Below are positions 7,129-19,854 of a stretch of 64,000 bases of DNA, piece after piece; within the stretch, counting starts at the first letter, position 1; each line of letters begins with the position of its first letter. The stretch comes from Candidatus Bathyarchaeia archaeon. Its GTDB lineage: Archaea > Thermoproteota > Bathyarchaeia > Bathyarchaeales > Bathycorpusculaceae. A model generated the notes under the pieces. It saw only the letters and a program-made list of their open reading frames with translations, was not told the origin of the DNA and did not search any database. The stretch lies in contig JBEKKK010000004.1 of the NCBI GenBank assembly GCA_050010755.1, positions 108,498 through 172,497 of the forward strand, read 5' to 3'. Position numbers and translations under genes: made by a program.

Positions 7129-8820
7129 TTATACACTAGCCTTCACGGTTATCGGGTTCAACCCCTTGAGGTGCTCCCCGCTTACAGGATAGTTTTCGTA
7201 CTCAACTGTCCAATACTCTTTGAACCTTCTCTTCATGTCATCGGTTATTCTTGCAGGTTCGGAGACCTCTACGTCAAGCCACATCGTGCGGCCGTCAACG
7301 TGCTTGAGAACCGCGCCGTCCCTGACAACAAGCTCTCCTCCTTTTATGGTGTAGGCGGCGCGTCTGAACGCTCTTCTCACGGTTCTGTACTTTCTTGAAA
7401 TGTCGGTTGTTTCGGGGTTTACGTTGTAAACGGCCACGTCAGCGTCGGCTCCTACGCCTAGATGTCCCTTGTTCTTCAGACCTAGGGCCCTGGCTTGTCC
7501 CGCCCTCGTCACAGTTGCGATTTCGTAGAGGCTTAGCTCCCGATCAATCGACGGCAGAAGGCTTCGGCTGCGCGCCCGAGCGTTGATTCTCTTCAAGCTT
7601 GCTTCTCTCGCTTTCTTGCTTATGAGCCAAGCGATAATCTTCGGATAAGCCGTGAAAGGCCCCCCGTTAGGATGGTCTGTCGTCATCAATATTCTCCAAG
7701 GATCCTTGATGAGGAGGGCCAGTTCTAGGCCGATGGACCACTGGACCGCATGAACGTAGCTTTTACGATGGTAACGGAAAGGCACGATGCCCCCGCTTGT
7801 CTCGGTTTCCACATCATGGTTCACCCACTTGTTCCCGGTGAGTCCATAAAGCGCGTATTGGAATGGGCCGTCAGCGGTCATGGTTGTCGTGTCCGTGAAT
7901 ATTACTTGACCCATATCCATAGTCGCGTGAATGTGACCGTTCATGTAGGTTGCTATCTCTTCTGCTCCTGACTCCAGTGTTCTCCAGTCATCGCCCTTGA
8001 ATGCGCTGAATTGACAGTGCGTCAAATGAATTACGGGCTTGTCTCCGGTTGCTAGGTCTTCGACGCACTTCAGAGTTTCTAGGGCGGTTGTGTAGTTTCC
8101 CGGCTTTCCGAGGTTGTTTGCGTGAACGTGAATTGTGTGTGGAAGGTTCAGGAGTTTGTTTGCTTTACACAGCCCGCGGATGATCTCTCGCGGCGTCGTA
8201 CAGAAGTGAGGGACCTGATCGTCCAGATCTTTGACGTTTTGGCCGAAGCCCCAAGCTTCAAGTCCACCTGGGTTGACGATTTTTATGGCATACCCTTTCG
8301 TCGAACTCATAATCCAAGCGATGTGTCTCGCGCATTCCTCGATTTTTCCTTGGGCCAAGTATTCAAGTGCGAACCACCAGTCGCCCAGAAGCGGGTAAGA
8401 AGCCTTGTCAAGCATCGGGGTGTCGTTTAACTCTTCGTGTGTGTGCTTCGCCTCCAGAGGCGGCATAGATGGGTTCATTATCGTCGTGTACCCCATTCTG
8501 GCGTAGCGGTAGCCCGTGGTGAACGTCGAAGGAATAGAACGACCGACTCCAGCCCTCGTCACTGACGTTTTTGATTCAAAATCTCTGAAGTGGTCTTCGG
8601 GCCTCAGAAGTCTCCCTGTGTTGACCTCCGAGCCAGCGATGTGAGTGTGAATATCAACGCCGCCGGGCATAACAGTCATTCCAGAGGCATCGATCTTTCT
8701 TGCTCTTCTTGCGCTGACGCTTTCGACGATTTTTCCATCTCTGATGGCGATGTCCATCTTTTCGCCGTTGACACCGTTCAGTGGGTCGTAGACGAAGCCG
8801 TTCTTTATTAGAAGCTCCAT
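7129..8820 (-). CDS. fwdA: Formylmethanofuran dehydrogenase subunit A (amidohydrolase)
   Basis: PGGVDIHTHIAG, RPEDH, KIVNPGG, HANNLG and TTDHPNGGPF motifs. Confidence 0.97.
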   Translation of the reverse strand: MELLIKNGFVYDPLNGVNGEKMDIAIRDGKIVESVSARRARKIDASGMTVMPGGVDIHTHIAGSEVNTGRLLRPEDHFRDFESKTSVTRAGVGRSIPSTFTTGYRYARMGYTTIMNPSMPPLEAKHTHEELNDTPMLDKASYPLLGDWWFALEYLAQGKIEECARHIAWIMSSTKGYAIKIVNPGGLEAWGFGQNVKDLDDQVPHFCTTPREIIRGLCKANKLLNLPHTIHVHANNLGKPGNYTTALETLKCVEDLATGDKPVIHLTHCQFSAFKGDDWRTLESGAEEIATYMNGHIHATMDMGQVIFTDTTTMTADGPFQYALYGLTGNKWVNHDVETETSGGIVPFRYHRKSYVHAVQWSIGLELALLIKDPWRILMTTDHPNGGPFTAYPKIIAWLISKKAREASLKRINARARSRSLLPSIDRELSLYEIATVTRAGQARALGLKNKGHLGVGADADVAVYNVNPETTDISRKYRTVRRAFRRAAYTIKGGELVVRDGAVLKHVDGRTMWLDVEVSEPARITDDMKRRFKEYWTVEYENYPVSGEHLKGLNPITVKASV

Positions 8821-10284
8821 TCACTTCACCTCTGTTGGGAGTTTCTTTCTCTTTTTCACTTTCCTTACCTCCAGCAGCAGTCTTCTCAGAATTTCCTCGT
8901 CCGACAAAACCCCTCTGGGAGGTTCAACAACTTTCTTGAGCGGAAGAGGCACGTGATCCATGCGGTAGGCTGTTCCACTAGCTTCTATTCCAACGAAGGC
9001 CGAGGGGAATACGATGTCAGCCATCTGGCTCGTCGCGTTCATGTGTGGATCTATGGCTATCAGGGGATTGTTCACCAGGTGTTCAGCTGCTTTTCTTGGA
9101 AAGTTTGAAACGGGGTCTGAAGCGATTACTAACGCCGCATCTGATTCTTTCCGCAGGAGAACATCGATGGCGGAGGTCTCTCCAGGATTGTACCTCGGAT
9201 AGCCCAAGGAAAAATCAACTGCGTAGGGGTAGCCCGTCTGCCACAGGAAAACCGTGTCTGCGCCCGAGACGTTGAAGTGTCCTCGCATGGGCATTATGAC
9301 GAATTTGGTTCTTGCGTTTAGATCGCGAGCTAAGTGCAACGCCGCGTCTACATTCCGCAGTTTGCCCTTGCTCATGGTAAGTCCAAGACCGAAAAAGATG
9401 ACTCCGAAATTGCAGCCGACCATTGCTTCAGAGACTTCTTCCAAGTATTCAACGGGCACGCCAGCGACCTTGTCGGTCTCTATTTCTTGATCCCGAATCA
9501 GAGCTCTGAAGGCTTGCAGAAGCTCATAATCCTTGTTGGGTTCAACCTGAATGAAGTAGTCGGCGATTTCTGCCGTTCTGGTCTTTCTGACGTCTATCAC
9601 TATCAGTTTTCTGCCGGCTTTCAGGATTGCGGGACAGGGTCCGCGTTCAACTGGCGTTGATGAGACGGAAATTTTCTTTTTTGGCGAAACTTGTCTCAGT
9701 GCACTCTCGACTTTTTTCTTTGCCGTTGCGGCCTTGGTTCTTGTGACGTAGGATCTCCATTCGCTTCTCTCAAACTTTCCTTCAGATAGCGTCGTATACC
9801 TCTCTATGTGTCGGGGATGAGCACTCCAGGGGTTGCTTCCCCAATAGATAACTAGATCCGCCCTGTGTCTTATCTGCCCCAACGTGCATGAAGCAATGCC
9901 AACGTCCTGAATGCCCAAGACTGAAGGGCCGTGGCACACGGTTGACGTGTTGTCAATTACTCCTCCAACCTCCTCGGCGAGTTCGATGCCCACGCGTGTG
10001 GCTTCGCAGCTCGTGGAACTCCAACCATAGAGGAGGGGATAGTCTGCGTCAGCAAGAACTTCGGCAGCTTTGACGAGGGCTTCCCTGAAGGGCACTTCGA
10101 CGAGTGTTCCGCTCTTTCTGATGAGCGGCTTCGGAAGCCGGTGTCCACTGTAACCTAAGAATTTAGATTCGCACATTGAACAGCCGTTCTTGACTTTGAC
10201 AATTCTCTTGTTCTTGATTGTCAGCTCTATGTCGTCGCAGAGACTTCCACAAACTGGACAGGTTACAGCCCTTACAATCGGCAT
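8821..10284 (-). CDS. fwdB: Formylmethanofuran dehydrogenase subunit B (Mo/W-bisPGD), Cys-type
   Basis: CPVCGSLCDD, TVCHGPS, HPRH, MRGHFNV and YRMD motifs; ATG at 10284. Confidence 0.96.
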   Translation of the reverse strand: MPIVRAVTCPVCGSLCDDIELTIKNKRIVKVKNGCSMCESKFLGYSGHRLPKPLIRKSGTLVEVPFREALVKAAEVLADADYPLLYGWSSTSCEATRVGIELAEEVGGVIDNTSTVCHGPSVLGIQDVGIASCTLGQIRHRADLVIYWGSNPWSAHPRHIERYTTLSEGKFERSEWRSYVTRTKAATAKKKVESALRQVSPKKKISVSSTPVERGPCPAILKAGRKLIVIDVRKTRTAEIADYFIQVEPNKDYELLQAFRALIRDQEIETDKVAGVPVEYLEEVSEAMVGCNFGVIFFGLGLTMSKGKLRNVDAALHLARDLNARTKFVIMPMRGHFNVSGADTVFLWQTGYPYAVDFSLGYPRYNPGETSAIDVLLRKESDAALVIASDPVSNFPRKAAEHLVNNPLIAIDPHMNATSQMADIVFPSAFVGIEASGTAYRMDHVPLPLKKVVEPPRGVLSDEEILRRLLLEVRKVKKRKKLPTEVK

Positions 10285-10285
10285 T

Positions 10286-10693
10286 TTATCCCTTCCCGAA
10301 CTGCTCTCTGAGAAGTTCACTCAAGCCGAGAACCGCTTTATCAGGAGCAGCCTCGATTTCCGCTGGAATGCCCTTTAGAGAAGGCATGCCGACGCTGTCA
10401 GTTTCCGTGCTGACGACTCTGTTTGCCCAGACACCATAAGGAATAAAAATTACGCCCGTATGTGGTCCTCTCGGAGATTTCAAGGCCTTAAGAATCACGG
10501 AACCATTGTCTGTCGAAACACGAACATTGGTTCCTCCTCGTATCCCAAGCTTCTTCATATCCACAGGGTCAACGTAGCAAACCGCAACACTTTTAAAATA
10601 ATCTTCCGAAGCCTTCCCACGTTCTTTGCCCACACCCTGCTCTATCGTTCGCCCAGTCAACAAAGTAACCTTAAGCTTCGAATTCATTTCCAT
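10286..10693 (-). CDS. fwdD: Formylmethanofuran dehydrogenase subunit D
   Basis: LLTGRTIEQG, IPYGVWAN and GMPSLKG motifs. Confidence 0.94.
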   Translation of the reverse strand: MEMNSKLKVTLLTGRTIEQGVGKERGKASEDYFKSVAVCYVDPVDMKKLGIRGGTNVRVSTDNGSVILKALKSPRGPHTGVIFIPYGVWANRVVSTETDSVGMPSLKGIPAEIEAAPDKAVLGLSELLREQFGKG

Positions 10694-10956
10694 CCTTCGA
10701 CCACAGCTTAACCATCTATACTGAAGCTTGAAAACCCCTTTCAAGTTAATTCTGACTATTCAATCCGACTAGTTGATGCGCTGAATCAAAGATTCTCCTA
10801 CGCATTCCAACAAATTAAACTTGCCGTCAGATAATGCGAGAAACAGTCATTGAAGTTGATAATTTCGAAAAACAGGCCTTCCGGATTCTGCCAGGTCATT
10901 CTAGACACCTGGCCACTCGTAACCTCAACTATTTGTCCATTGGCAAACCATGAAGA

Positions 10957-11439
10957 CTACAGGTAAGGTCCAAAAACAAAAGGATTTCCCGTGCCTTGGT
11001 TTGTCAGCCGTACTTGGATTGCGGTTTCTATGAATATATAGGCCATTAGCGCCAAGGCCAATCCGATTATTAGCAGCACGTAGGCCTTTCTGGGCTTGTA
11101 GACATAACTTGTGCTTCGATGCATCGCCAGTAGTCCGATCGCTCCCAGAGAATAGGCAATTGCGACGAGCATGCTGTCGCTCAAGAATTGTTCGGGACCG
11201 GATGGAGCGCCAATGACATACCCGAATGGGAAGAAACCCGCCACTGGTGGCCTCAGGATCAAATCATATACACCACCCGCGAAGAGAAAGACAGCAAGAG
11301 CAATCGCTAATGTTGGCACGACGAGACTCGACCAATTAACAGTTGTGATTGCCCGATTTATCCTCAATGCTATTTTATGAAAAATCTTCCTGACCCAGAA
11401 GGACATTGAAGAAAAACCCCTTTTAACAGTTCCGCTCAT
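10957..11439 (-). CDS. Three-TM membrane protein resembling OSTC/DC2 (OST3/OST6-family C-terminal domain)
   Basis: 'FLFAGGVYDLILRPP ... EQFLSDS ... YSLGAIGLLAMHRS' parallels the OSTC pattern GGIIYDVIVEPP...QYIMEG...GGLGFIILDRS (recalled, not aligned). Confidence 0.6.
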   Translation of the reverse strand: MSGTVKRGFSSMSFWVRKIFHKIALRINRAITTVNWSSLVVPTLAIALAVFLFAGGVYDLILRPPVAGFFPFGYVIGAPSGPEQFLSDSMLVAIAYSLGAIGLLAMHRSTSYVYKPRKAYVLLIIGLALALMAYIFIETAIQVRLTNQGTGNPFVFGPYL

Positions 11440-11793
11440 AATTGATTCTCCGCTTCAATCAAACGCTGGGCCATCTTCTCCTTCACGCTTGTCCAAAGAT
11501 TCTACGCAATCTCCCTATAATAATCTTGTTAATTGCGATTTTGATTGATTCTGTGGTGCTTTTTTATTAATTTGATGCGTTTATCCAGTTTATTAGCTGA
11601 CAAAAGAATATGGGAACGCAAGCAAAAAATAGCCTGACAGAAAACGTTGTTTCCGAAGTCATTTGCGTCGAGAAAAGAGTACACTCCAACCCTGAGGTAT
11701 GCACGGCATCACACCCGAGAACATAGATTGATAATCACTCCATAACCTTATGAAAGGTCGAAAGTGATACTGTTTGAGACGGCGAATAGATGG

Positions 11794-12825
11794 ATGAAAG
11801 CTCGAGAAGGCGATTTGATAGAAAGTGAAGCTAACCTGATTTTCGATGTCAAAGGCCTAGTCCACCCTCCTAATCGAGTCGTCGCCTTCATCCGTTATTT
11901 TCCAGACGAGAAAGGCAACAGAACGAGGGAAGGGAAGCATTTTGGCAAGGTCTATTCTCTTCCGAGAAGATACGCACTCTTGAAGGAAAGGTTCCCCGGA
12001 TACCTTGTCTATGACCCTGTTTTTGATGAAACTCTGTGCGAAGTCCCAGCCGAAAATGTCAAAGAAATCTACAAGCCAGCTGACAAGCTTCAGGAACTGC
12101 GCAAGTCCAAAAATCTGGATCCGGTTCAGGACAAGGCCCTCCGATTTGCCGAACTCTTGAAAGAAAGCGCAGGTATCAAGTGGAATAACTTGGGGATTTC
12201 AGGTTCCATCATGGTTGGACTTCACACGGCAGAGTCGGACATCGATCCTGTCGTTTATGGCTCGGAAAACTGCAGGAAAGTGTATTCGGCATTGAAGAGC
12301 ATGTTCGAAAACGGGAACGAATCCGTCAAGGCTTATTCAAAGAAGGATATGAAAGCGTTGTTCGACTTTCGTTCGAAGGATACTGCAATAGGGTTCGAAG
12401 ACTTCGTACGAATGGAATCGAGGAAAGTGATGGAAGGCAAATTCGACGCAACGGACTATTTTGTCCGCTTCGTGAAAGACTGGAATGAAATTGACGAAAA
12501 CTACGGGGATGTTCAATACAAGAACGTCGGCAACGCGAGGATAGAAGCCACCGTAATCGATGATTCAGAATCAACGTTTACCCCATGCACCTACAAGGTC
12601 GAAAATGTCAAGCTGCTCGAAGGATCGAAAGTCGACCACATCGAGGAAATTGCGTCTTTTCGAGGCAGATTCTGTGAACAAGCCAAAGAAGGCGAAACCG
12701 TGTTGGCACAGGGAAAGGTCGAATGCGTCACACTTCGAAGGAAAAATAGTGAACATTTTAGACTCTTAGTCGGAGGCAGGCTTACGGACCATATCGTTCT
12801 GAAGCATCGAGTCCATTCGAGCTAG
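11794..12825 (+). CDS. Predicted nucleotidyltransferase, COG1665-type, paralog 1
   Basis: GISGS...SDID catalytic motif; N-terminal 'EGD..IFDVKGLVHPP'; C-terminal OB-like 'CEQAKEGE...GKVE'. Confidence 0.8.
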   Translation: MKAREGDLIESEANLIFDVKGLVHPPNRVVAFIRYFPDEKGNRTREGKHFGKVYSLPRRYALLKERFPGYLVYDPVFDETLCEVPAENVKEIYKPADKLQELRKSKNLDPVQDKALRFAELLKESAGIKWNNLGISGSIMVGLHTAESDIDPVVYGSENCRKVYSALKSMFENGNESVKAYSKKDMKALFDFRSKDTAIGFEDFVRMESRKVMEGKFDATDYFVRFVKDWNEIDENYGDVQYKNVGNARIEATVIDDSESTFTPCTYKVENVKLLEGSKVDHIEEIASFRGRFCEQAKEGETVLAQGKVECVTLRRKNSEHFRLLVGGRLTDHIVLKHRVHSS

Positions 12826-12900
12826 CGAGTTCCCGTCTTCAACTGCGAGCGGGTATAGCATATTCCAGGCGGGGCATTTGAGAGAATGTGCAGGAGTGTT

Positions 12901-13974
12901 TCACATTCTGGCTACTTTCAGAACCTGTTCATAATATCTTGGACAATAGGTCAACGCTATTTGGAAGCATTGGTCCTTGTCGCCAGTGACTTCTTCGAGA
13001 TTTCCTTCGACGTAGATGGTTTCGTCTCTGAAAGCTTGCATTCGGAATTCTTCCACGTAAGAGATAACTCGTTTGACTTGTTGAGCTTGTCTTACTCCCT
13101 CGAGGATTTTCAACGGTTCGATGTTGTAGACTGATGGAATGAACGGAGCGTCCCTATCATCTCTTATTCGAGCAAACAGCTTTACCCAGCCTCGCTGCAG
13201 GATCTTGTTCGCAGGGTTGTACTCGTTGCGTATCTCTTTCCAATCTTTCACTGGTTCAAACTCCGTCTTTATTGTCCTTGCAGTTCCCTTGTTTTCGAGT
13301 AATGAATAGATGAGTTTCCTCTGCTGATGCCACAGGAATTCCTTCGGAGTGAAGTTTCGAAATCGCCACACCTTTCCACTTATCGACTTGTTTGTTTCAA
13401 ATTCGTTCCGAAGCAGAGAGGACTTGGCCGTGTACAATTCGCCTAGTGTTTTGCGCAGTCTCGCCATGTTTTTTTCACCATAAACTGTGAGGTCGATATC
13501 CGAGAATTCAGGGTGATAGAAACCGTGAAGCATCGACCCGAACACGCCAAAGTTCTTAGTTGACAAACCAGACTGCTCCGTTGTAGTGTCCAAGACGTTG
13601 CCCATTGCTGCAAGAAGGCTGTCCTTGGGTTCGGTTTGAATCAGTTTTGCAAGCACTCTTTCGGGCTTTCGAATGTTTCTGATGTCATGGTTTTTGACGC
13701 CTACGACTTTCTTCTGGAGCATTTCGTGCAGAACCATGTACTGTGGATAGCTCTTTTCCAAGAACTTCCAACCTTCATCTTCGTAGAACTTGTAGAAGAC
13801 ACGTTGCCCTTTTTTTCTGAATGCTTTGGGGTTATCGGATTTGAACACGGCTGCGGGTGCGTATTCAGCATCGCACGCATGGGCATCTGGCGGGTGTGAG
13901 TATCCAAACACTCTGAATATGAGGCCTTCGTCAGTGACGATTGCGTCGCGGTCTCTCAGTTTTGAAGTGGCCAA
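12901..13974 (-). CDS. Predicted nucleotidyltransferase, COG1665-type, paralog 2
   Basis: GVFGS...SDID motif; N-terminal '[11 protein letters not shown]'; TTG start with GGAGGAG. Confidence 0.8.
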
Positions 13975-14984
13975 ATGTGCTCCTCCTCGCTGATGGCCGT
14001 TCCGACTACGACCTGATAAAAAACTTGGCCCGTTTCGACGTTTTTTGCTCGCTCCAGCATTCCTGAAACGCCAATCCTCTCCCCTCTTCGGGCAACGTTA
14101 CGGTAGCAACCAATCATTGAAACAACAGTTTCCGGAACCTTACCTTCGCTAAGCTCTCCCGCTTCTACCACGTCGTAGTCCCCGATTCTGTAAGTGGCAG
14201 GTCGAAACATCGCTTCAGCATCGTCCTGAACCCTGCAGGTGAATTCCACAGGAGTCACGGCGTCATATTGCAGTTTGCCGTATTCTCCTCTGATTTCTTC
14301 GGGTCTCCGAATTGCGTTGTACATGAAAACCTTGTTCAGGTATTTTCCCTTATAGCGGCGACACGCATCTAAACGGTTGCTGAACTTGTAGCTCAGCTTG
14401 CCATTTTCAACGAGTCTGTTTATCGTTGCTTCCAGCACGCGAAAGTTTTTCGCCCCGTAAACGACGAGGTCTATGTCCGATTTTGAAGTGTGCATGTTTA
14501 AGGCCACTGAGCCATGGAGACCGAAATCTTCCAACCCTATTTCTGATTCGGTCGACAGCAAATCAACAAGGTTTAAGCTCATCTTTTGCATGTTATCCTT
14601 GGTTTCAAGCCTGGCCAGATCACGTAGACAGTCCCTAGGAATGAATACCTTCTCGATAGAATCTAGTGGCGCGCTTATGATATCCTTTCTTCTGAAGGGG
14701 CAATAGTAAACGTAGTCTGGGAAGTTATTTCGAAAGGTCTCCAGAAATGTCTGGTAGTTTTTTGCAGTGTACAGGTTTTCAGCTCGGAACAGCTTCTGCT
14801 CTTCATAGGTCCATGTGTTCTCTAAGTATTCGACGTTGAACAGCTTCTGAAAGGTAGCTGGGATGTATTTGAGGAAGGCGAAAACTCTTTTGGAGGGGTG
14901 CTCGTACCCGAAAACGTTGAAGATGAACCCGTCTCGGGTCGTGAAGGTATCTCCGTCTTCGGGAATCCAACGTTTCAGGTCCGT
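13956..14984 (-). CDS. Predicted nucleotidyltransferase, COG1665-type, paralog 3 (non-canonical start)
   Basis: Frame is open upstream of the ORF-track ATG (14591) to an in-frame TAG at 14985-14987 and encodes '[35 protein letters not shown]', homologous to the paralog N-termini; GLHGS...SDID motif. Confidence 0.78.
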
Positions 14985-15088
14985 CTAAGGCGCCTCGACA
15001 TGATGTCGTTCGGAGTGACAAAAAAACCTATCGCAGAAAGCCATAACGCTTTAAGCAGGAGGACACTAAAGCAAATTTGCGTGATTAA

Positions 15089-15580
15089 TTGAACAGCAAC
15101 TTACATCCCTATGTAGTTTTTCTTCCTTCTGAACATAAGGTCAAGGTTCTGAGCGCCATCTTCGGTTCAAAAGCGGCTGTCGACATACTGAAATTCTCGC
15201 TCAAGCAGGGCATTTCGAACAAGATTTACCAGGGCGACCTCGTGAGGAAATTAGAATTTTCGAACAAGACCGTTATCGAAAACCTGAAGTCGCTGACCAA
15301 GCTTGGAATATTAACCGAGAAAATGGAGAAAACCGAGAAGAATGGCCGTATCACGTGGGTCAAAGCCTATCAGCTCGAGAGTGCGGGAAAATGGTTTGCA
15401 CTCTTGTTAGCTGAAGAAAGAGAACTGTCCGACAAGGAGAAGGCGGAAATATTCCAAAGCCTCTTCAGAACCTACCTGCGATGGTCGAAGGATCTCTCCA
15501 AGAAACTGAACATAGATCTCAAAACGCTGGAAAGAGTCTTCACAGAAGAAATGCAGCGAACACAGGCGCGTGAGGCTTGA
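15089..15580 (+). CDS. Winged-helix transcriptional regulator-like protein
   Basis: 'YQGDLVRKLEFSNKTVIENLKSLTKLGIL' helix-turn-helix followed by a wing. Confidence 0.7.
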   Translation: MNSNLHPYVVFLPSEHKVKVLSAIFGSKAAVDILKFSLKQGISNKIYQGDLVRKLEFSNKTVIENLKSLTKLGILTEKMEKTEKNGRITWVKAYQLESAGKWFALLLAEERELSDKEKAEIFQSLFRTYLRWSKDLSKKLNIDLKTLERVFTEEMQRTQAREA

Positions 15581-16104
15581 AGGTGATTGCCATCGGTGTA
15601 GTGGGCGGAAAAAAAACAGGAAAGACCACTACTATTGAGATTTTAACGAGGGAACTCACAAAGAGAGGCTACAAGATTGCAGTGGCCAAACACATTCCGG
15701 AGCCTAATTTTACGCTGGATACAGAACGGAAGGATACATGGCGCTTCGTTCAATCAGGTGCCAAGACGGTGGTCGCCGCATCGGCAGGCGAGATAGCAAC
15801 CATAGAGAAGACTCGCGCAAACCTCTCCCTGAAAGAGATTCTTAAGAGATGTAGAGGCAACGACATAGTTTTCCTAGAAGGCTTCAGAAAACTCTTGGCT
15901 GAGAACAGAAACATACACAAGATTGTCGTTGCAGAATCCGCCCGAGATATCAAAGAAGCGAGTGAGATGTTTATGCCCGTACTGGTCTTCACAGGACCCT
16001 ACTCGCCCGAGGAACCTCACCCTGAAATCCCGTTCATAGACGTACTTAAACATGGCGAAGAAATAGCTGATCTCGTGGAAAAAATAGTCGGAAAAAAGGG
16101 GTAA
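15577..16104 (+). CDS. mobB: Molybdopterin-guanine dinucleotide biosynthesis protein MobB
   Basis: GGKKTGKTT P-loop, KH...D...DTWRF...GA and EGFR motifs. Confidence 0.88.
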   Translation: MKVIAIGVVGGKKTGKTTTIEILTRELTKRGYKIAVAKHIPEPNFTLDTERKDTWRFVQSGAKTVVAASAGEIATIEKTRANLSLKEILKRCRGNDIVFLEGFRKLLAENRNIHKIVVAESARDIKEASEMFMPVLVFTGPYSPEEPHPEIPFIDVLKHGEEIADLVEKIVGKKG

Positions 16105-16257: not shown

Positions 16258-17436
16258 CTAGAGCGCTTTGAAGGCTTCAAACCATCTGTTGTAGAGCGCC
16301 AGCATGTCGAGAGACACACTGGGTTTTCTGTCTTCCAGTATCTGTCTGAAGTCGTCCATCGTTAGAGGTCTCGGTTTGGCCTGTTTGTCTTCTGCCTTTC
16401 CGGACTCGAAGAATTCGCCTATGAGTTTCAGTTGTGCCGATTGGTTGACGTCTCTGATGTCGCTTCCTGAAAATCCTTCTGAAAGCCGTGCTAGCTCGTG
16501 CAAGTCGACGTCAGGCGCCAGCTGTAAGTTGGTCGTGTAGAGTTTGAACATCATCAATCGTGTGTGATGGTCTGGAAGAGGTACGAGAATGCGTTTCTGG
16601 AACCTCCTTATAAATGCCCAGTCCAAGTCCCAAGGCTTGTTCGTGGCACCGATAACGTAGACGTGCAGGTTCTTGCCCTTGTCCATGATTCCGTCCATCT
16701 CTTTCAAAAACTGGTTCCTTACCCTGATTTCGCCGCCGACTTCGTTCGCGTGTTTGCCCATCATCGAGTCTAATTCGTCGATGAACACTATTGATGGCTT
16801 GCCTTCCAAAGCCGATTTCCTGACCGAGCCGAAGAGTTTGGCCACGTTCTGTTCACCCTCACCGAGCCACTTGGACATCACCGTAGCAGCGTCGATAGAC
16901 AGAAAGTTTGCGTCAATCTCTGTGGCGACCGCAGCGGCCAGTAACGTTTTGCCGCAGCCTGGCGGTCCGAACAGCAAGATTCCTCTCGGCCATCCAAGCG
17001 GGAAAAGATCTGGCCTCTGAACCGGGTACACTATAGCCTCTTTCACGGCTTTCTTGGCGGGGTCAAGCCCGACGACTCCGTCCCATTTCACGTTCGGTTT
17101 TTCTATCATTATGAGTTCTTCGTAGGTTGATTTTCCGCCCTCGGTCTTTGTTTCGCCGTCAGCGCCGTTGCATTTGGTTTCGGGCCTCGGCTCGAAGGAT
17201 GTGACGGCGCCCTGTATTGCTTTGATTCGTTCTTGGTAGGCGATTGCTCTTTGTATGTAAACCTTGTTCAGACTGTATTCTGGGTAGAGTTGAACGAGTT
17301 GCAGGAGGCTTTCTATGGCTTTTTGGTACATGGTTATGGCCATGCCTTTCGCCCCCTGCTTATCGAGGCGAACTGCCTCTAGGGCGAAGTTCGTCGCGGA
17401 CTTCTCAAGCTCTTGAGACGCGCTCATAACTTTCAT
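16258..17436 (-). CDS. cdvC: Cell division AAA ATPase CdvC (Vps4 homolog)
   Basis: N-terminal MIT domain (AVRLDKQG...YQKAIE), GPPGCGKT, FIDELD, ATNKPWDLD and RRFQKR motifs. Confidence 0.95.
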   Translation of the reverse strand: MKVMSASQELEKSATNFALEAVRLDKQGAKGMAITMYQKAIESLLQLVQLYPEYSLNKVYIQRAIAYQERIKAIQGAVTSFEPRPETKCNGADGETKTEGGKSTYEELIMIEKPNVKWDGVVGLDPAKKAVKEAIVYPVQRPDLFPLGWPRGILLFGPPGCGKTLLAAAVATEIDANFLSIDAATVMSKWLGEGEQNVAKLFGSVRKSALEGKPSIVFIDELDSMMGKHANEVGGEIRVRNQFLKEMDGIMDKGKNLHVYVIGATNKPWDLDWAFIRRFQKRILVPLPDHHTRLMMFKLYTTNLQLAPDVDLHELARLSEGFSGSDIRDVNQSAQLKLIGEFFESGKAEDKQAKPRPLTMDDFRQILEDRKPSVSLDMLALYNRWFEAFKAL

Positions 17437-18332
17437 TCTCCAGTTTTCAATTCGATTTTTATTTTTCCTTTTGACCCTAGACTTTCTAGGGCTTTCTCGA
17501 TATCCTCGTTCGAGGTTTCCAAGTCAACTGAGCAACGTTCCATATCGATTTGACCGTTGCTCTTCTTGACGTATTCGAGAATGGCATCCTCCAATTGAGG
17601 ATTTTCGAGTTTCAAGGAGATTTCCTTGATTTCGGATTTCTTATAAGAAATGAGGGTTTGGGAAGAATCTCTTCCGGATTCTTCCGAGGTTTTGCTTATC
17701 TTCTTTTCTGAAGAGTTAGACGATAACGCAAGCATTTCTTCCAACGTGGCCCGCTCATTTTCCTGGATTTTCTGAGTAACGGGTGGTTCGGGCAGGTTTT
17801 GGGAGATTCTTTGTTCCAGAAAGCTTGAGACTTGGCTTAGCACTTCTTCGCCGCCTGGCGTCTTTCGGTCTACAGGAATGACTGATTCATCAGCTGTTAT
17901 CTTTGCTGAATAGAGCGTTTCGCTTATGGTGTCGTTGACTCTGCTCAGTTCGGATGAAACGTCTGGCAAGAATTGAAAGAGCTCTTGTGATACATTCTGG
18001 AGAAGCTTCAGAGCGGGTTTTAGATCGATTACTATATCGCTCAGTTCCTTAATTGTCTCGAGTCTGAGGATTACTCGCTCGATGGCCAGCTCTACGCTGT
18101 GAAGAAAGCTGATGATCTTGCGAATTTCGGCGATTTCGTTAGCGTAGATTGCCGCACGATCTTTGTTCTTTGCCGTGACAGCTCCGACGCATGTTTGGAA
18201 AAGGATTTTATCTTTTTCTTTAAGTCTGTAACCAGCCTGTTGAAGTTTGCACTGTTGGACTCTGAGAACTCGTATTGATTTGAATGCTGTTTCACGAAGA
18301 GGTGGAGGGCTCGAACGGAAAAATCCTTTGAT
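17433..18332 (-). CDS. cdvB: ESCRT-III CdvB with MIM2-like motif and C-terminal winged helix (about 299 aa; probable ATC start)
   Basis: Frame open upstream of the TTG at 17969 encodes the Snf7 core 'AAIYANEIAEIRK...LAIERVILRLETIKEL'; LPEPP motif; C-terminal wH 'ILEYVKKSNGQID...IEKALESLGSKGKI'. Confidence 0.88.
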   Translation of the reverse strand: MKGFFRSSPPPLRETAFKSIRVLRVQQCKLQQAGYRLKEKDKILFQTCVGAVTAKNKDRAAIYANEIAEIRKIISFLHSVELAIERVILRLETIKELSDIVIDLKPALKLLQNVSQELFQFLPDVSSELSRVNDTISETLYSAKITADESVIPVDRKTPGGEEVLSQVSSFLEQRISQNLPEPPVTQKIQENERATLEEMLALSSNSSEKKISKTSEESGRDSSQTLISYKKSEIKEISLKLENPQLEDAILEYVKKSNGQIDMERCSVDLETSNEDIEKALESLGSKGKIKIELKTGE

Positions 18333-18366
18333 GACCCTTCCCTCCGCCCGCTATTCTCGTTCCAGT

Positions 18367-19098
18367 CTATATTCCGGTTTTTCCGATTTCCTTCACGTAA
18401 ACGACTACTGGCGGTTCTGGAAGCTCCGACTCAAGCGGTTTTGGTGGCTCAGGGATCCTGTTCTTCGCCTGTTCAACAGATCTGGAAGAGTCTCCTAGCA
18501 GGATGCTGGATAGCTTGCTTGTCGTTAGCTCCAAGTCGGTTTTTTTCATGTGAACTCGCTTGATGTTTTCTTGAATCAGTGAAAAAGCGGTCTCGTAGTA
18601 TTGGATGTCAACTTTTCCTATCTCGTGTTCGATTTCAAGGTTAACTAGGGCATAGTTTAGTGCCTTTGCCTCCTCGTTACATTCTGAGATTTCGTCGTCT
18701 ATTTCTTCTCTCAGAGTCTCTGCTTCGCTCTTGAGCTGAGTGAGAGCGCCATCGAAGGTGCTGTGAAGCTCTGCGTAGAATTCTTTTGGTATTTTCTTTT
18801 TCTCAGAGAGGTCTTTGAGCGCTTGGTCCTTGCGCCAAATGAGGGGAATCTGATCGCTAAGTATGCTTGCTTGAGCCTTTATGTTGGAGATGAGGGTTAC
18901 CTCAGAACCGTTGAACCTGATGTTATCTGAACATCGCTTTAGAAATCTTCCATCGCCCAACGCTATGAAGACGCCGTCGAATTTTCCACTCGGGGTCACT
19001 GCAAAAGAGGCTATCTTACCTATCGGACGTCCGTACTCGTCGTTGATTTGTTTTCCTACAGAAAGAAAAAGGTTGGGGTTTTGTGACATCTTTTTCAT
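18367..19098 (-). CDS. cdvA: Cell division protein CdvA
   Basis: PRC-barrel start 'GKQINDEYGRPIGKI', long coiled coil, 'EHEIG', C-terminal beta peptide 'VVVYV'; position in the operon. Confidence 0.88.
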   Translation of the reverse strand: MKKMSQNPNLFLSVGKQINDEYGRPIGKIASFAVTPSGKFDGVFIALGDGRFLKRCSDNIRFNGSEVTLISNIKAQASILSDQIPLIWRKDQALKDLSEKKKIPKEFYAELHSTFDGALTQLKSEAETLREEIDDEISECNEEAKALNYALVNLEIEHEIGKVDIQYYETAFSLIQENIKRVHMKKTDLELTTSKLSSILLGDSSRSVEQAKNRIPEPPKPLESELPEPPVVVYVKEIGKTGI

Positions 19099-19107
19099 CC
19101 CCTATGT

Positions 19108-19781
19108 TTACGAAGTCTCGGTTGACGATTTTTCGCTTACAGGGGCCGTTGGTAGTCCCGGTATTCCTGGTGGCAGATCTGGGAACTTCTCTTTGACTCT
19201 CTGTTCTGCGACTGTTGCTGCTTCTGTGAGAATTTTGCCTGCATCTTCGTTCACGTTGTCGAAGTTCAACGTCATTCCAGAGCCTGTTCCTGCTTCCATC
19301 ATTATTCCGCTCAGCATGTTGCCGATTTCGCCTAGTTCGCTCTCTGCTTCGGGGAAAACGCTAACTAATCCTGCTCTGACCGATCTCAAGACTCCGACTG
19401 CGGGGCCTAACGTTGAGACTACGTCTCCGAGTTCTGATACGGTGCGTAATCTTAACACGATCTGTTCGAGTGCAAGCCTTGCGTTTATGATAAGTTTCTC
19501 CATCTTGCGAATCTCTGCCAGCTCGTTTGCAAAGACGTTTGCTCGGGCTGTGTCATGCTTCGTGTAGGCGTCAACTATTCTTGCGAATATCGTCTTGTCT
19601 CTTTGGCCGAATCTGTCAGTGGCTTGATCCAATTTCTGAACCTGCAATTCGATTCGTCGAACAGCAAAGTCTAGGCGGGGCTTCAATGGGCCAGGTGGTT
19701 TGACTGCTTCTTTGACACGGTTTGTGAGGGGCTGTTCTTCTCTTCTCGTTTCCCATTTTTTGCTAAATCTTTCTGACAAGT
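19108..19781 (-). CDS. ESCRT-III CdvB1/B2-like Snf7 protein
   Basis: 'ANVFANELAEIRK...LEQIVLRLRTVSELGD...EDAGKILTEA...FPDLP'; TTG at 19781 preceded by GGAGGT. Confidence 0.9.
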
Positions 19782-19854
19782 TAATTACCTCCAGAGACAA
19801 AAGGTCGCGAGGAAGAATCTTATACATTGTTAACATGGCAAAAACATGCTTGTA

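Follow-up and report, generated by a model that had tools for sequence, protein, structure and literature searches.

Three paralogous nucleotidyltransferase genes of a Bathyarchaeia genome and their possible link to methanopterin-type cofactor assembly

Three adjacent genes for predicted nucleotidyltransferases (NTs), named here NT1, NT2 and NT3, lie within a 64,000-nt stretch of the genome of a Candidatus Bathyarchaeia archaeon (G000:C4:108498-172497; genome of 2.19 Mb in 8 contigs, 93% complete). This whole stretch is referred to as the window. Together these genes make up a conserved set of old paralogs belonging to an uncharacterised archaeal enzyme family of wide distribution. From comparative analysis, we propose with a probability of roughly 0.45 that the family consists of phosphodiester-forming transferases acting in the side-chain assembly of a methanopterin-type cofactor, with chemistry like that of CitX and MdcG. 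Pathway, substrate and mechanism are inferred, the last by analogy with CitG/CitX and MdcB/MdcG, and the exact step within side-chain assembly is assigned with less confidence than the pathway itself.

A conserved set of Pol-beta-type paralogs

NT1 (11764-12825, plus strand, 353 aa) and NT2 (12901-13974, minus strand, 357 aa) were taken from the list of open reading frames (ORFs), and NT3 (13956-14984, minus strand) is a stop-to-stop frame of 342 codons. NT1 starts with GTG at 11764; the position 11794, with which an earlier note on this DNA had opened the cluster, is an internal ATG. NT3 and NT2, the upstream and downstream genes of an operon on one strand, have 19 nt in common where NT3 ends and NT2 begins, and NT1 converges on NT2 across a gap of 75 nt, in agreement with the layout of two overlapping genes and a third convergent one given in that note. 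These are the sole copies of the family in the genome. Their closest named protein records come from Bathyarchaeia, where NT2 orthologues are up to 91% identical.

The view that the three proteins are diverged paralogs with a shared architecture was borne out by their pairwise identity of 24-29% and by 47 invariant columns, which include G-S, D-I-D and the N-terminal I-F-x-V-x-G-x-x-H-P. All three keep the catalytic motif, as had been claimed: the Pol-beta-superfamily pattern hG[GS] followed by [DE]h[DE]h is present as G146-S147 and D159-x-D161 (NT2 numbering). G-S and D-x-D were also retained throughout each subfamily, namely in NT1 (32/32), NT2 (27/27), NT3 (22/22), NT4 (16/16; a fourth group described below) and the methanogen type (24/24). 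Because the catalytic motifs are kept in every one, no subfamily looks like a dead regulatory copy. Judged by sequence, the products of the three genes are probably competent catalysts that belong to one old Pol-beta-fold transferase family of archaea.

Existing family models cover little of these proteins. PF01909 (NTP_transf_2) scored above its cut-off for NT2 (25.5 bits, E 1.7e-5) and NT3 (24.1 bits), and NT1 had no match to it at E 0.01. The same model was matched by 59 of 60 family members at E <= 1, with a match spanning only about 40 residues, and neither Pfam nor NCBIfam has a model that reaches the N or C domains or names the family. Public records call the orthologues 'predicted nucleotidyltransferase', 'nucleotidyltransferase domain-containing protein' or 'DNA polymerase subunit beta', generic names like those of other archaeal 'NTP_transf_2 / DNA polymerase beta domain' proteins. 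A full-text literature search returned nothing on 'COG1665'.

An AlphaFold (AF2) model of NT2, built from a 60-sequence alignment (pLDDT 94.8, pTM 0.91), was divided into an N-terminal beta-barrel (residues 1-112), a Pol-beta nucleotidyltransferase (NTase) core (113-245) and an OB fold (257-357), which supports the core and C-terminal OB fold proposed earlier. The modelled core aligned with CutA (6ywn), Trf4 (3nyb), TUTases, GLD-2, TdT, pol beta, MenT1 and cGLR at VIA Z 6.2-6.7, a range common for unrelated chains; weak by themselves, these alignments of a predicted fold agree with the catalytic motifs. The OB fold reached VIA Z 7.0 to single-stranded DNA-binding proteins (SSBs) and MCM N-domains. 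Folded alone, the N-domain gave a pLDDT of 93.4, and no fold could be assigned to it (best VIA Z 4.2, to Lsm5 over 66 residues at a root-mean-square deviation (rmsd) of 3.1; Foldseek E 0.47). For the whole NT2 model, Foldseek found no match at E <= 0.001 and VIA found per-domain matches alone (Z <= 7.0). Searching the sequences of solved structures with the single protein and with a 60-sequence profile yielded nothing significant (best E 0.049), and matches in the ESM Atlas were solely to 'hypothetical protein' clusters. The earlier note had considered that the paralogs might match a characterised enzyme; no whole-protein match appeared among solved structures, Pfam or NCBIfam.

At genus, family and order level, 37 of 41 genomes contain the NT family, mostly as three or four copies side by side, so that the clustering itself is strongly conserved; the four relatives with no family match are 77-98% complete. 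In a quick maximum-likelihood tree with a midpoint root, for which the Shimodaira-Hasegawa-like approximate likelihood ratio test (SH-aLRT) was the only support measure, NT1 (99), NT2 (100) and NT3 (100) formed separate subfamilies beside a fourth group, NT4, which includes the single Sulfolobaceae gene and was lost from taxonomic family f1. The overlapping NT3->NT2 operon was found in families f1, f7, f22, f27 and f33, and an overlapping NT1->NT4 operon in f13, f14 and f28. These two operon pairs, apparently both old, fit the sequential or hetero-oligomeric system suggested in the earlier note. A complex prediction for NT3 with NT2 from orthologue alignments scored 0.00, was run without controls and has no bearing either way on binding. 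At one related locus (L054, G030:C23, 7279-8345, minus strand), the NT2 orthologue was called as two ORFs (7279-7857 and 7866-8345), and in the family search it matched as two pieces, one of which has a TAG inside it; either the gene is broken or the assembly may be wrong here.

Gene neighbours and distribution of the family

When all neighbours were clustered, the gene most widely shared among the NT loci was of the CitG family, which was found in 17 genomes of families f1, f3, f7, f27 and f39. The common block in relatives reads CitG - ECF-S - NT1> <NT2 <NT3 wHTH> MobB>, where ECF-S is the S-component gene of an energy-coupling factor (ECF) transporter and wHTH a winged helix-turn-helix gene; NT1 is the copy that adjoins the FolT-like ECF-S gene and the CitG homolog. 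Of the 52 genomes for which both positions were listed, 24 had CitG no more than 5 kb from an NT gene, and these came from 11 of 18 families. Two Sulfolobaceae genomes each carry one diverged NT gene that overlaps CitG; the operon is ordered 174-aa gene - DUF1464 (PF07318) - NT - CitG - small metallophosphoesterase; a full-text literature search gave nothing relevant on DUF1464. The Sulfolobaceae locus L079 (G122:C1:400959-404825), a compact operon of five genes with overlaps, is about 97% identical to a Sulfolobus acidocaldarius record and offers a tractable model locus. With 62.8 bits against an equivalog cut-off of 280, the archaeal CitG homolog is no true CitG/MdcB orthologue.

The ECF S-component between CitG and NT1 (for example L044:7510-8262, plus strand, with equivalents in L040-L054 and L068) is the usual companion of CitG at these loci and occurs in 12 genomes of f1, f3, f7 and f39. 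Its best NCBIfam match is the folate transporter FolT (TIGR04518, 41 bits, E 1.4e-10), below the cut-off. The gene frequently stands beside an ABC-2 transporter pair and is absent from the window locus.

Genes of pterin and one-carbon (C1) metabolism also recur beside NT genes. Ftr is found among the NT genes in f3, f7 and f14, and Ftr and Fwd genes neighbour NT across f3, f7, f14 and f39. In methanogens, a block of MptA (GTP cyclohydrolase, TIGR00294, 455 bits), DUF2098 and NT was present in 9 of 20 fetched Halobacteriota loci (L209-L217) and in Methanolobus (L207), all of the Methanosarcinales type. DUF2098 is presumably the aldolase MptD, and a full-text literature search found nothing useful on MptD, COG2098 or DUF2098. 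A divergent DUF366 gene is constantly adjacent in three Methanobacteriales, joined by a PTPS-family gene in Methanobrevibacter. Methanospirillum-type loci instead have a YrdC-like gene and a Cas4-like gene next to NT.

In methylotrophic bacteria, the tetrahydromethanopterin (H4MPT) gene island is given as mch-orf5-orf7-fae (PMC3615186), and three consecutive Methylomonas genes are annotated as methenyl-H4MPT cyclohydrolase, alpha-L-glutamate ligase and triphosphoribosyl-dephospho-CoA synthase (PMC11533326). By this correspondence, orf7 of the island is a CitG homolog.

Across 201 Thermoproteota genomes, NT was found in 91 and CitG in 94; both were present in 84 genomes, NT alone in 7, CitG alone in 10 and neither in 100. 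Methanogen genomes were located by an mcrA primer scan. Five named methanogens each have exactly one NT and one CitG gene, which are not adjacent. NT was single-copy in all 101 genomes of the Methanobacterium phylum sample and, again as a single copy, present in 118 of 151 genomes of the Halobacteriota (Methanospirillum phylum) sample. In the latter, its presence followed that of Ftr (126/151 genomes): among Ftr-positive genomes 117 had NT and 9 had none, and among Ftr-negative genomes 24 had none and one showed a weak split match. CitG was detected in 145 of these 151 genomes and accompanied NT in 116 of 118.

The earlier note had stressed the genes immediately flanking the cluster, and their positions were confirmed. 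The wHTH gene (15089-15580, plus strand), whose product weakly matches Lrs14/Sta1-like and HTH_27 models, is divergent from NT3 and begins 104 nt away, where about 100 nt had been stated. It overlaps by 4 nt with mobB (15577-16104, plus strand), whose product was identified as MobB by TIGR00176 (99.3 bits against a cut-off of 76.2) and PF03205 (88.8 bits). The fwd genes stand on the other side, on the minus strand between 10744 and 7129, in the order fwdD (10286-10744; FwdD model below cut-off), fwdB (8821-10320) and fwdA (7129-8820), as assigned by Pfam and NCBIfam; TIGR03121 and TIGR03129 exceed their cut-offs.

Conservation of these flanks was assessed at 20 order-level loci searched with the window proteins, 17 of them from family f1 and 3 from other families. 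Within f1, Fwd genes lay within 20 kb at 16 of 17 loci, the wHTH gene adjoined at 13 and MobB at 11; at the three other-family loci there was one weak FwdD, and the wHTH gene and MobB each adjoined at one. Twenty distant loci were then considered, from 15 genomes of 10 families. MobB was adjacent at none of the 20 and Fwd in f14 and f39, so the mobB/fwd linkage is largely inherited synteny. The wHTH neighbour was kept in f1 and at single f7 and f39 loci. Of the neighbourhood conservation that the note had called for, paralog clustering therefore stands, and the mobB/wHTH/fwd linkage is mainly confined to one family and patchy beyond it, which makes it weak evidence.

Proposed role and alternative readings

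CitG makes an alpha-linked 5-triphosphoribosyl adduct from ATP, and CitX and MdcG, which carry the Pol-beta motif, then move the phosphoribosyl unit onto a hydroxyl, releasing pyrophosphate (PPi). H4MPT contains a 5-phospho-alpha-ribosyl group on ribitol, phosphodiester-linked to 2-hydroxyglutarate, whereas methylotrophs make dephospho-H4MPT. To our knowledge several steps of H4MPT side-chain synthesis have no assigned enzyme. Full-text literature searches that combined CitG or triphosphoribosyl with methanopterin found no paper giving such a step its enzyme, and nothing relevant on triphosphoribosyl-dephospho-CoA together with an archaeal nucleotidyltransferase or on methanopterin combined with 'hydroxyglutar-' and 'phosphoribosyl'.

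We propose that the NT family acts downstream of the archaeal CitG homolog in the assembly of an H4MPT-like pterin side chain. The CitG homolog, using ATP, would attach a 5-triphospho-alpha-ribosyl group to the precursor's ribitol. NT would then let the hydroxyl of an acceptor attack the alpha-phosphate, so that PPi leaves and a phosphodiester is formed; in H4MPT the acceptor would be (S)-2-hydroxyglutarate. Methanogens would need one such enzyme and have one copy. In Bathyarchaeia and related Thermoproteota, the three or four paralogs could work as heteromers, or could add successive or alternative groups to a more elaborate or salvaged pterin. A CitX-like step catalysed by NT would explain the single copy in methanogens, the dependence on CitG without the reverse, the pterin-gene neighbours and the absence of NT where Ftr is absent.

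The likeness to CitX and MdcG lies in the Pol-beta-type G-S and D-x-D, in the partnership with a CitG-family gene in many relatives (on another contig in this genome) and in the proposed reaction, in which a triphosphoribosyl donor passes its 5-phosphoribosyl-X unit to a hydroxyl and PPi is released. The NT proteins differ from CitX and MdcG in being about twice as long, since they also have an N-terminal barrel and an OB fold at the C-terminus, and no acyl carrier protein gene recurs among their neighbours; the proposed acceptor is instead a small hydroxy acid or a cofactor intermediate.

Several observations weigh against this assignment. The window proteins match no CitX/MdcG model (Pfam, E 0.01), nor is there one among the 25 listed of the 29 families matched by 60 members (E 1). 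The CitG/ECF-S part of the block is missing from the locus in this genus, and the only CitG homolog of the genome is on contig 1. CitG was present in 29 of the 33 NT-negative genomes of the Halobacteriota sample, and the NT-CitG pair is therefore not obligate; the 9 Ftr-positive genomes of that sample with no NT match count on the same side. Shared ancestry inflates all of these co-occurrence counts, as related genomes are not independent. In Methanospirillum-type loci, the adjoining gene is YrdC-like (Sua5/YciO/YrdC). The Sm/KOW-like N-barrel (a weak likeness, Z 4.2), the SSB-like OB fold and the core resembling RNA enzymes would suit an RNA substrate equally well. Finally, beta-ribofuranosylaminobenzene 5'-phosphate (beta-RFAP) synthase (TIGR00144) was matched in 65 of the 91 NT-positive Thermoproteota, with none at E 1e-10 in the other 26, and it had no match above the cut-off in the present, 93% complete genome, despite Fwd and two Ftr genes.

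The beta-RFAP synthase gap suggests precursor salvage, a non-orthologous enzyme for the aryl-ribitol part, or a looser tie between the family and H4MPT synthesis de novo. Of these, salvage is hinted at by the FolT-like transporter, though no more than that. A fuller version of the proposal, which we regard as doubtful, is that NT is the missing last-step enzyme of the methanopterin side chain, joining the triphosphoribosyl intermediate made by CitG to 2-hydroxyglutarate by CitX-like chemistry, with the task split in Bathyarchaeia and allied Thermoproteota among three or four paralogs that build an undescribed, more elaborate derivative; lineages lacking beta-RFAP synthase, such as the present genome, may use a precursor imported by the FolT-like transporter, and NT3 would be translated from an ACG start, rare for archaea.

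A serious rival, which we consider unlikely, is that the NTs are RNA-directed enzymes that tail the 3' ends of tRNAs or small RNAs or make a nucleotide-type modification, with the RNA held by the OB fold and the Sm-like N-domain and each paralog taking different RNAs. Matches of the OB domain include SSBs, OB proteins of the editosome and the anticodon-binding domain of AspRS (Z 5.9-7.0), Lsm/Sm proteins are the best, weak matches of the N-domain (Z 4.2), and the Sua5/YciO/YrdC-family neighbour of Methanospirillum-type loci would fit. The best core matches are CutA, Trf4, Cid1, GLD-2 and TUTases (Z 6.2-6.7, rmsd 3.3-4.2 Å, 90-97 residues aligned), and 24 of 60 family members weakly match MTPAP-like_central. 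All these fold scores are, however, in a range common for unrelated chains, and the cores of pol beta, cGLR and MenT1 score equally. Unlike poly(A) and poly(U) polymerases, the NT family is archaeal only and has different flanking domains; Pfam detected none of the PAP-associated domain that Cid1/Trf4 enzymes have, and an OB fold stands in place of the PAP-associated/central domain. TiaS (tRNA-Ile2 agmatinylcytidine synthetase) is an archaeal multi-domain enzyme that likewise combines a nucleotide-using catalytic domain with a C-terminal OB fold, but the window NT proteins have no TiaS-related Pfam match at E 0.01 and no such protein among the listed fold matches, they lack a zinc ribbon, and their phyletic pattern is not universal in archaea. 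An RNA-directed role also leaves unexplained the recurrent CitG, MptA, FolT-like, Ftr and Fwd neighbours and the near-absence of NT from Ftr-negative genomes (1/25).

The molybdopterin side of the cofactor function envisaged in the earlier note fared worse than its pterin side: comparative evidence favours the pterin link, and this option is better supported than the emphasis on molybdopterin and mobB. Specifically, maturation or insertion of the tungsten/molybdenum bis-molybdopterin guanine dinucleotide cofactor for formylmethanofuran dehydrogenase together with MobB, with the OB fold as a Mop/TOBE-like binder, is quite improbable. It would account for fwdDBA and mobB flanking the cluster here and in most f1 loci, and for MobA-like neighbours in f13 and f17 and an FdhD neighbour in f1 and f39. 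Against it stand the scarcity of adjacent MobB outside f1, the SSB-type rather than Mop/TOBE matches of the OB domain, and the lack of NT in 24 of 25 Ftr-negative genomes of the Halobacteriota sample; Sulfolobaceae have NT with CitG, yet the control S. acidocaldarius shows no Ftr. Least credible is a signalling or anti-virus system of the CD-NTase or MNT-toxin kind, with paralogs making nucleotide second messengers. In PADLOC, models for oligonucleotide cyclase and PDC-S09 matched the core weakly (E ~1e-3, 15-18 bits), and Foldseek gave weak rows for CdnC (E 0.02), but these are confined to the generic core and fall far below family level. The syntenic placement and the single copy in the methanogen samples (101/101 and 118/151) form a housekeeping pattern and not that of a defence island, and no effector, HEPN or sensor gene recurs among NT neighbours. 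The remaining probability falls to something other than the four readings weighed here.

Start codon of NT3, flanking genes and implications

The NT3 frame opens with ACG (14982-14984, minus strand) directly after a TAG stop. The first ATG, GTG or TTG is at 14591, 131 codons into the frame, and a start there would remove the conserved N-domain. The description of all three genes as intact accordingly holds for the NT1 and NT2 frames, and for NT3 it has to be qualified, in that no ATG, GTG or TTG start precedes 14591. Over all 342 residues, NT3 shares 82% identity with the orthologue of the same genus, which argues that the whole frame is under selection.

Upstream regions were compared for 26 distinct orthologues, 24 of family f1 and two of other families. 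In 20 of the 24 f1 regions, an ACG is located 5-6 codons before a conserved Trp and 6-8 nt after a GGTG/GAGG motif; in two others (G004 and G009), ATG occupies exactly the same codon. A stop codon immediately 5' of the ACG was seen in four orthologue regions, and 11 regions lack any canonical start ahead of the Trp, counting from the last stop or over 20 codons. The orthologues of the two other families start with GTG or ATG. The Shine-Dalgarno-like motif is GAGGTG or GGTG in most relatives; the window has GAGGCG (14991-14996, minus strand), 6 nt upstream of the ACG, which would serve the same function. Judging from this conservation, NT3 most likely initiates at the conserved ACG. A start at an upstream out-of-frame ATG followed by a frameshift was rejected, because that ATG is not conserved (ATA in L037). 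A full-text literature search found nothing relevant on an ACG start codon in archaea.

Between fwdD and NT1, where most relatives have transporter, CitG and ECF-S genes over some 4 kb, the window carries a gene for a 160-aa membrane protein (10957-11439, minus strand; weak DUF6962 match), which indicates a deletion or rearrangement in this genus. The idea that this gene is a degraded ECF-S gene was rejected, as its product has no similarity to the ECF-S protein. Beyond mobB lies a cell-division cluster (16258-19836, minus strand; Pfam and NCBIfam) of cdvC (Vps4-like AAA ATPase, NF041006, E 1e-154), a 178-aa gene, cdvA and cdvB (Snf7-like), which is syntenic with the NT cluster throughout family f1. 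A scan for bacterial-type promoters and terminators gave sites no more numerous than in shuffled sequence.

The analysis yields a concrete candidate for methanopterin assembly: a single-copy gene that all sampled genomes of the Methanobacterium phylum possess and whose neighbourhood links it to CitG and MptA, accessible in the tractable Methanococcus, Methanosarcina and Sulfolobus acidocaldarius. The conserved ACG of NT3, if it is indeed the start codon, would be a clear-cut natural example of non-canonical initiation in archaea. The expansion of the paralogs in Bathyarchaeia would, if the proposed role is correct, hint at C1 carriers of unknown chemistry in a sediment lineage that is abundant worldwide.

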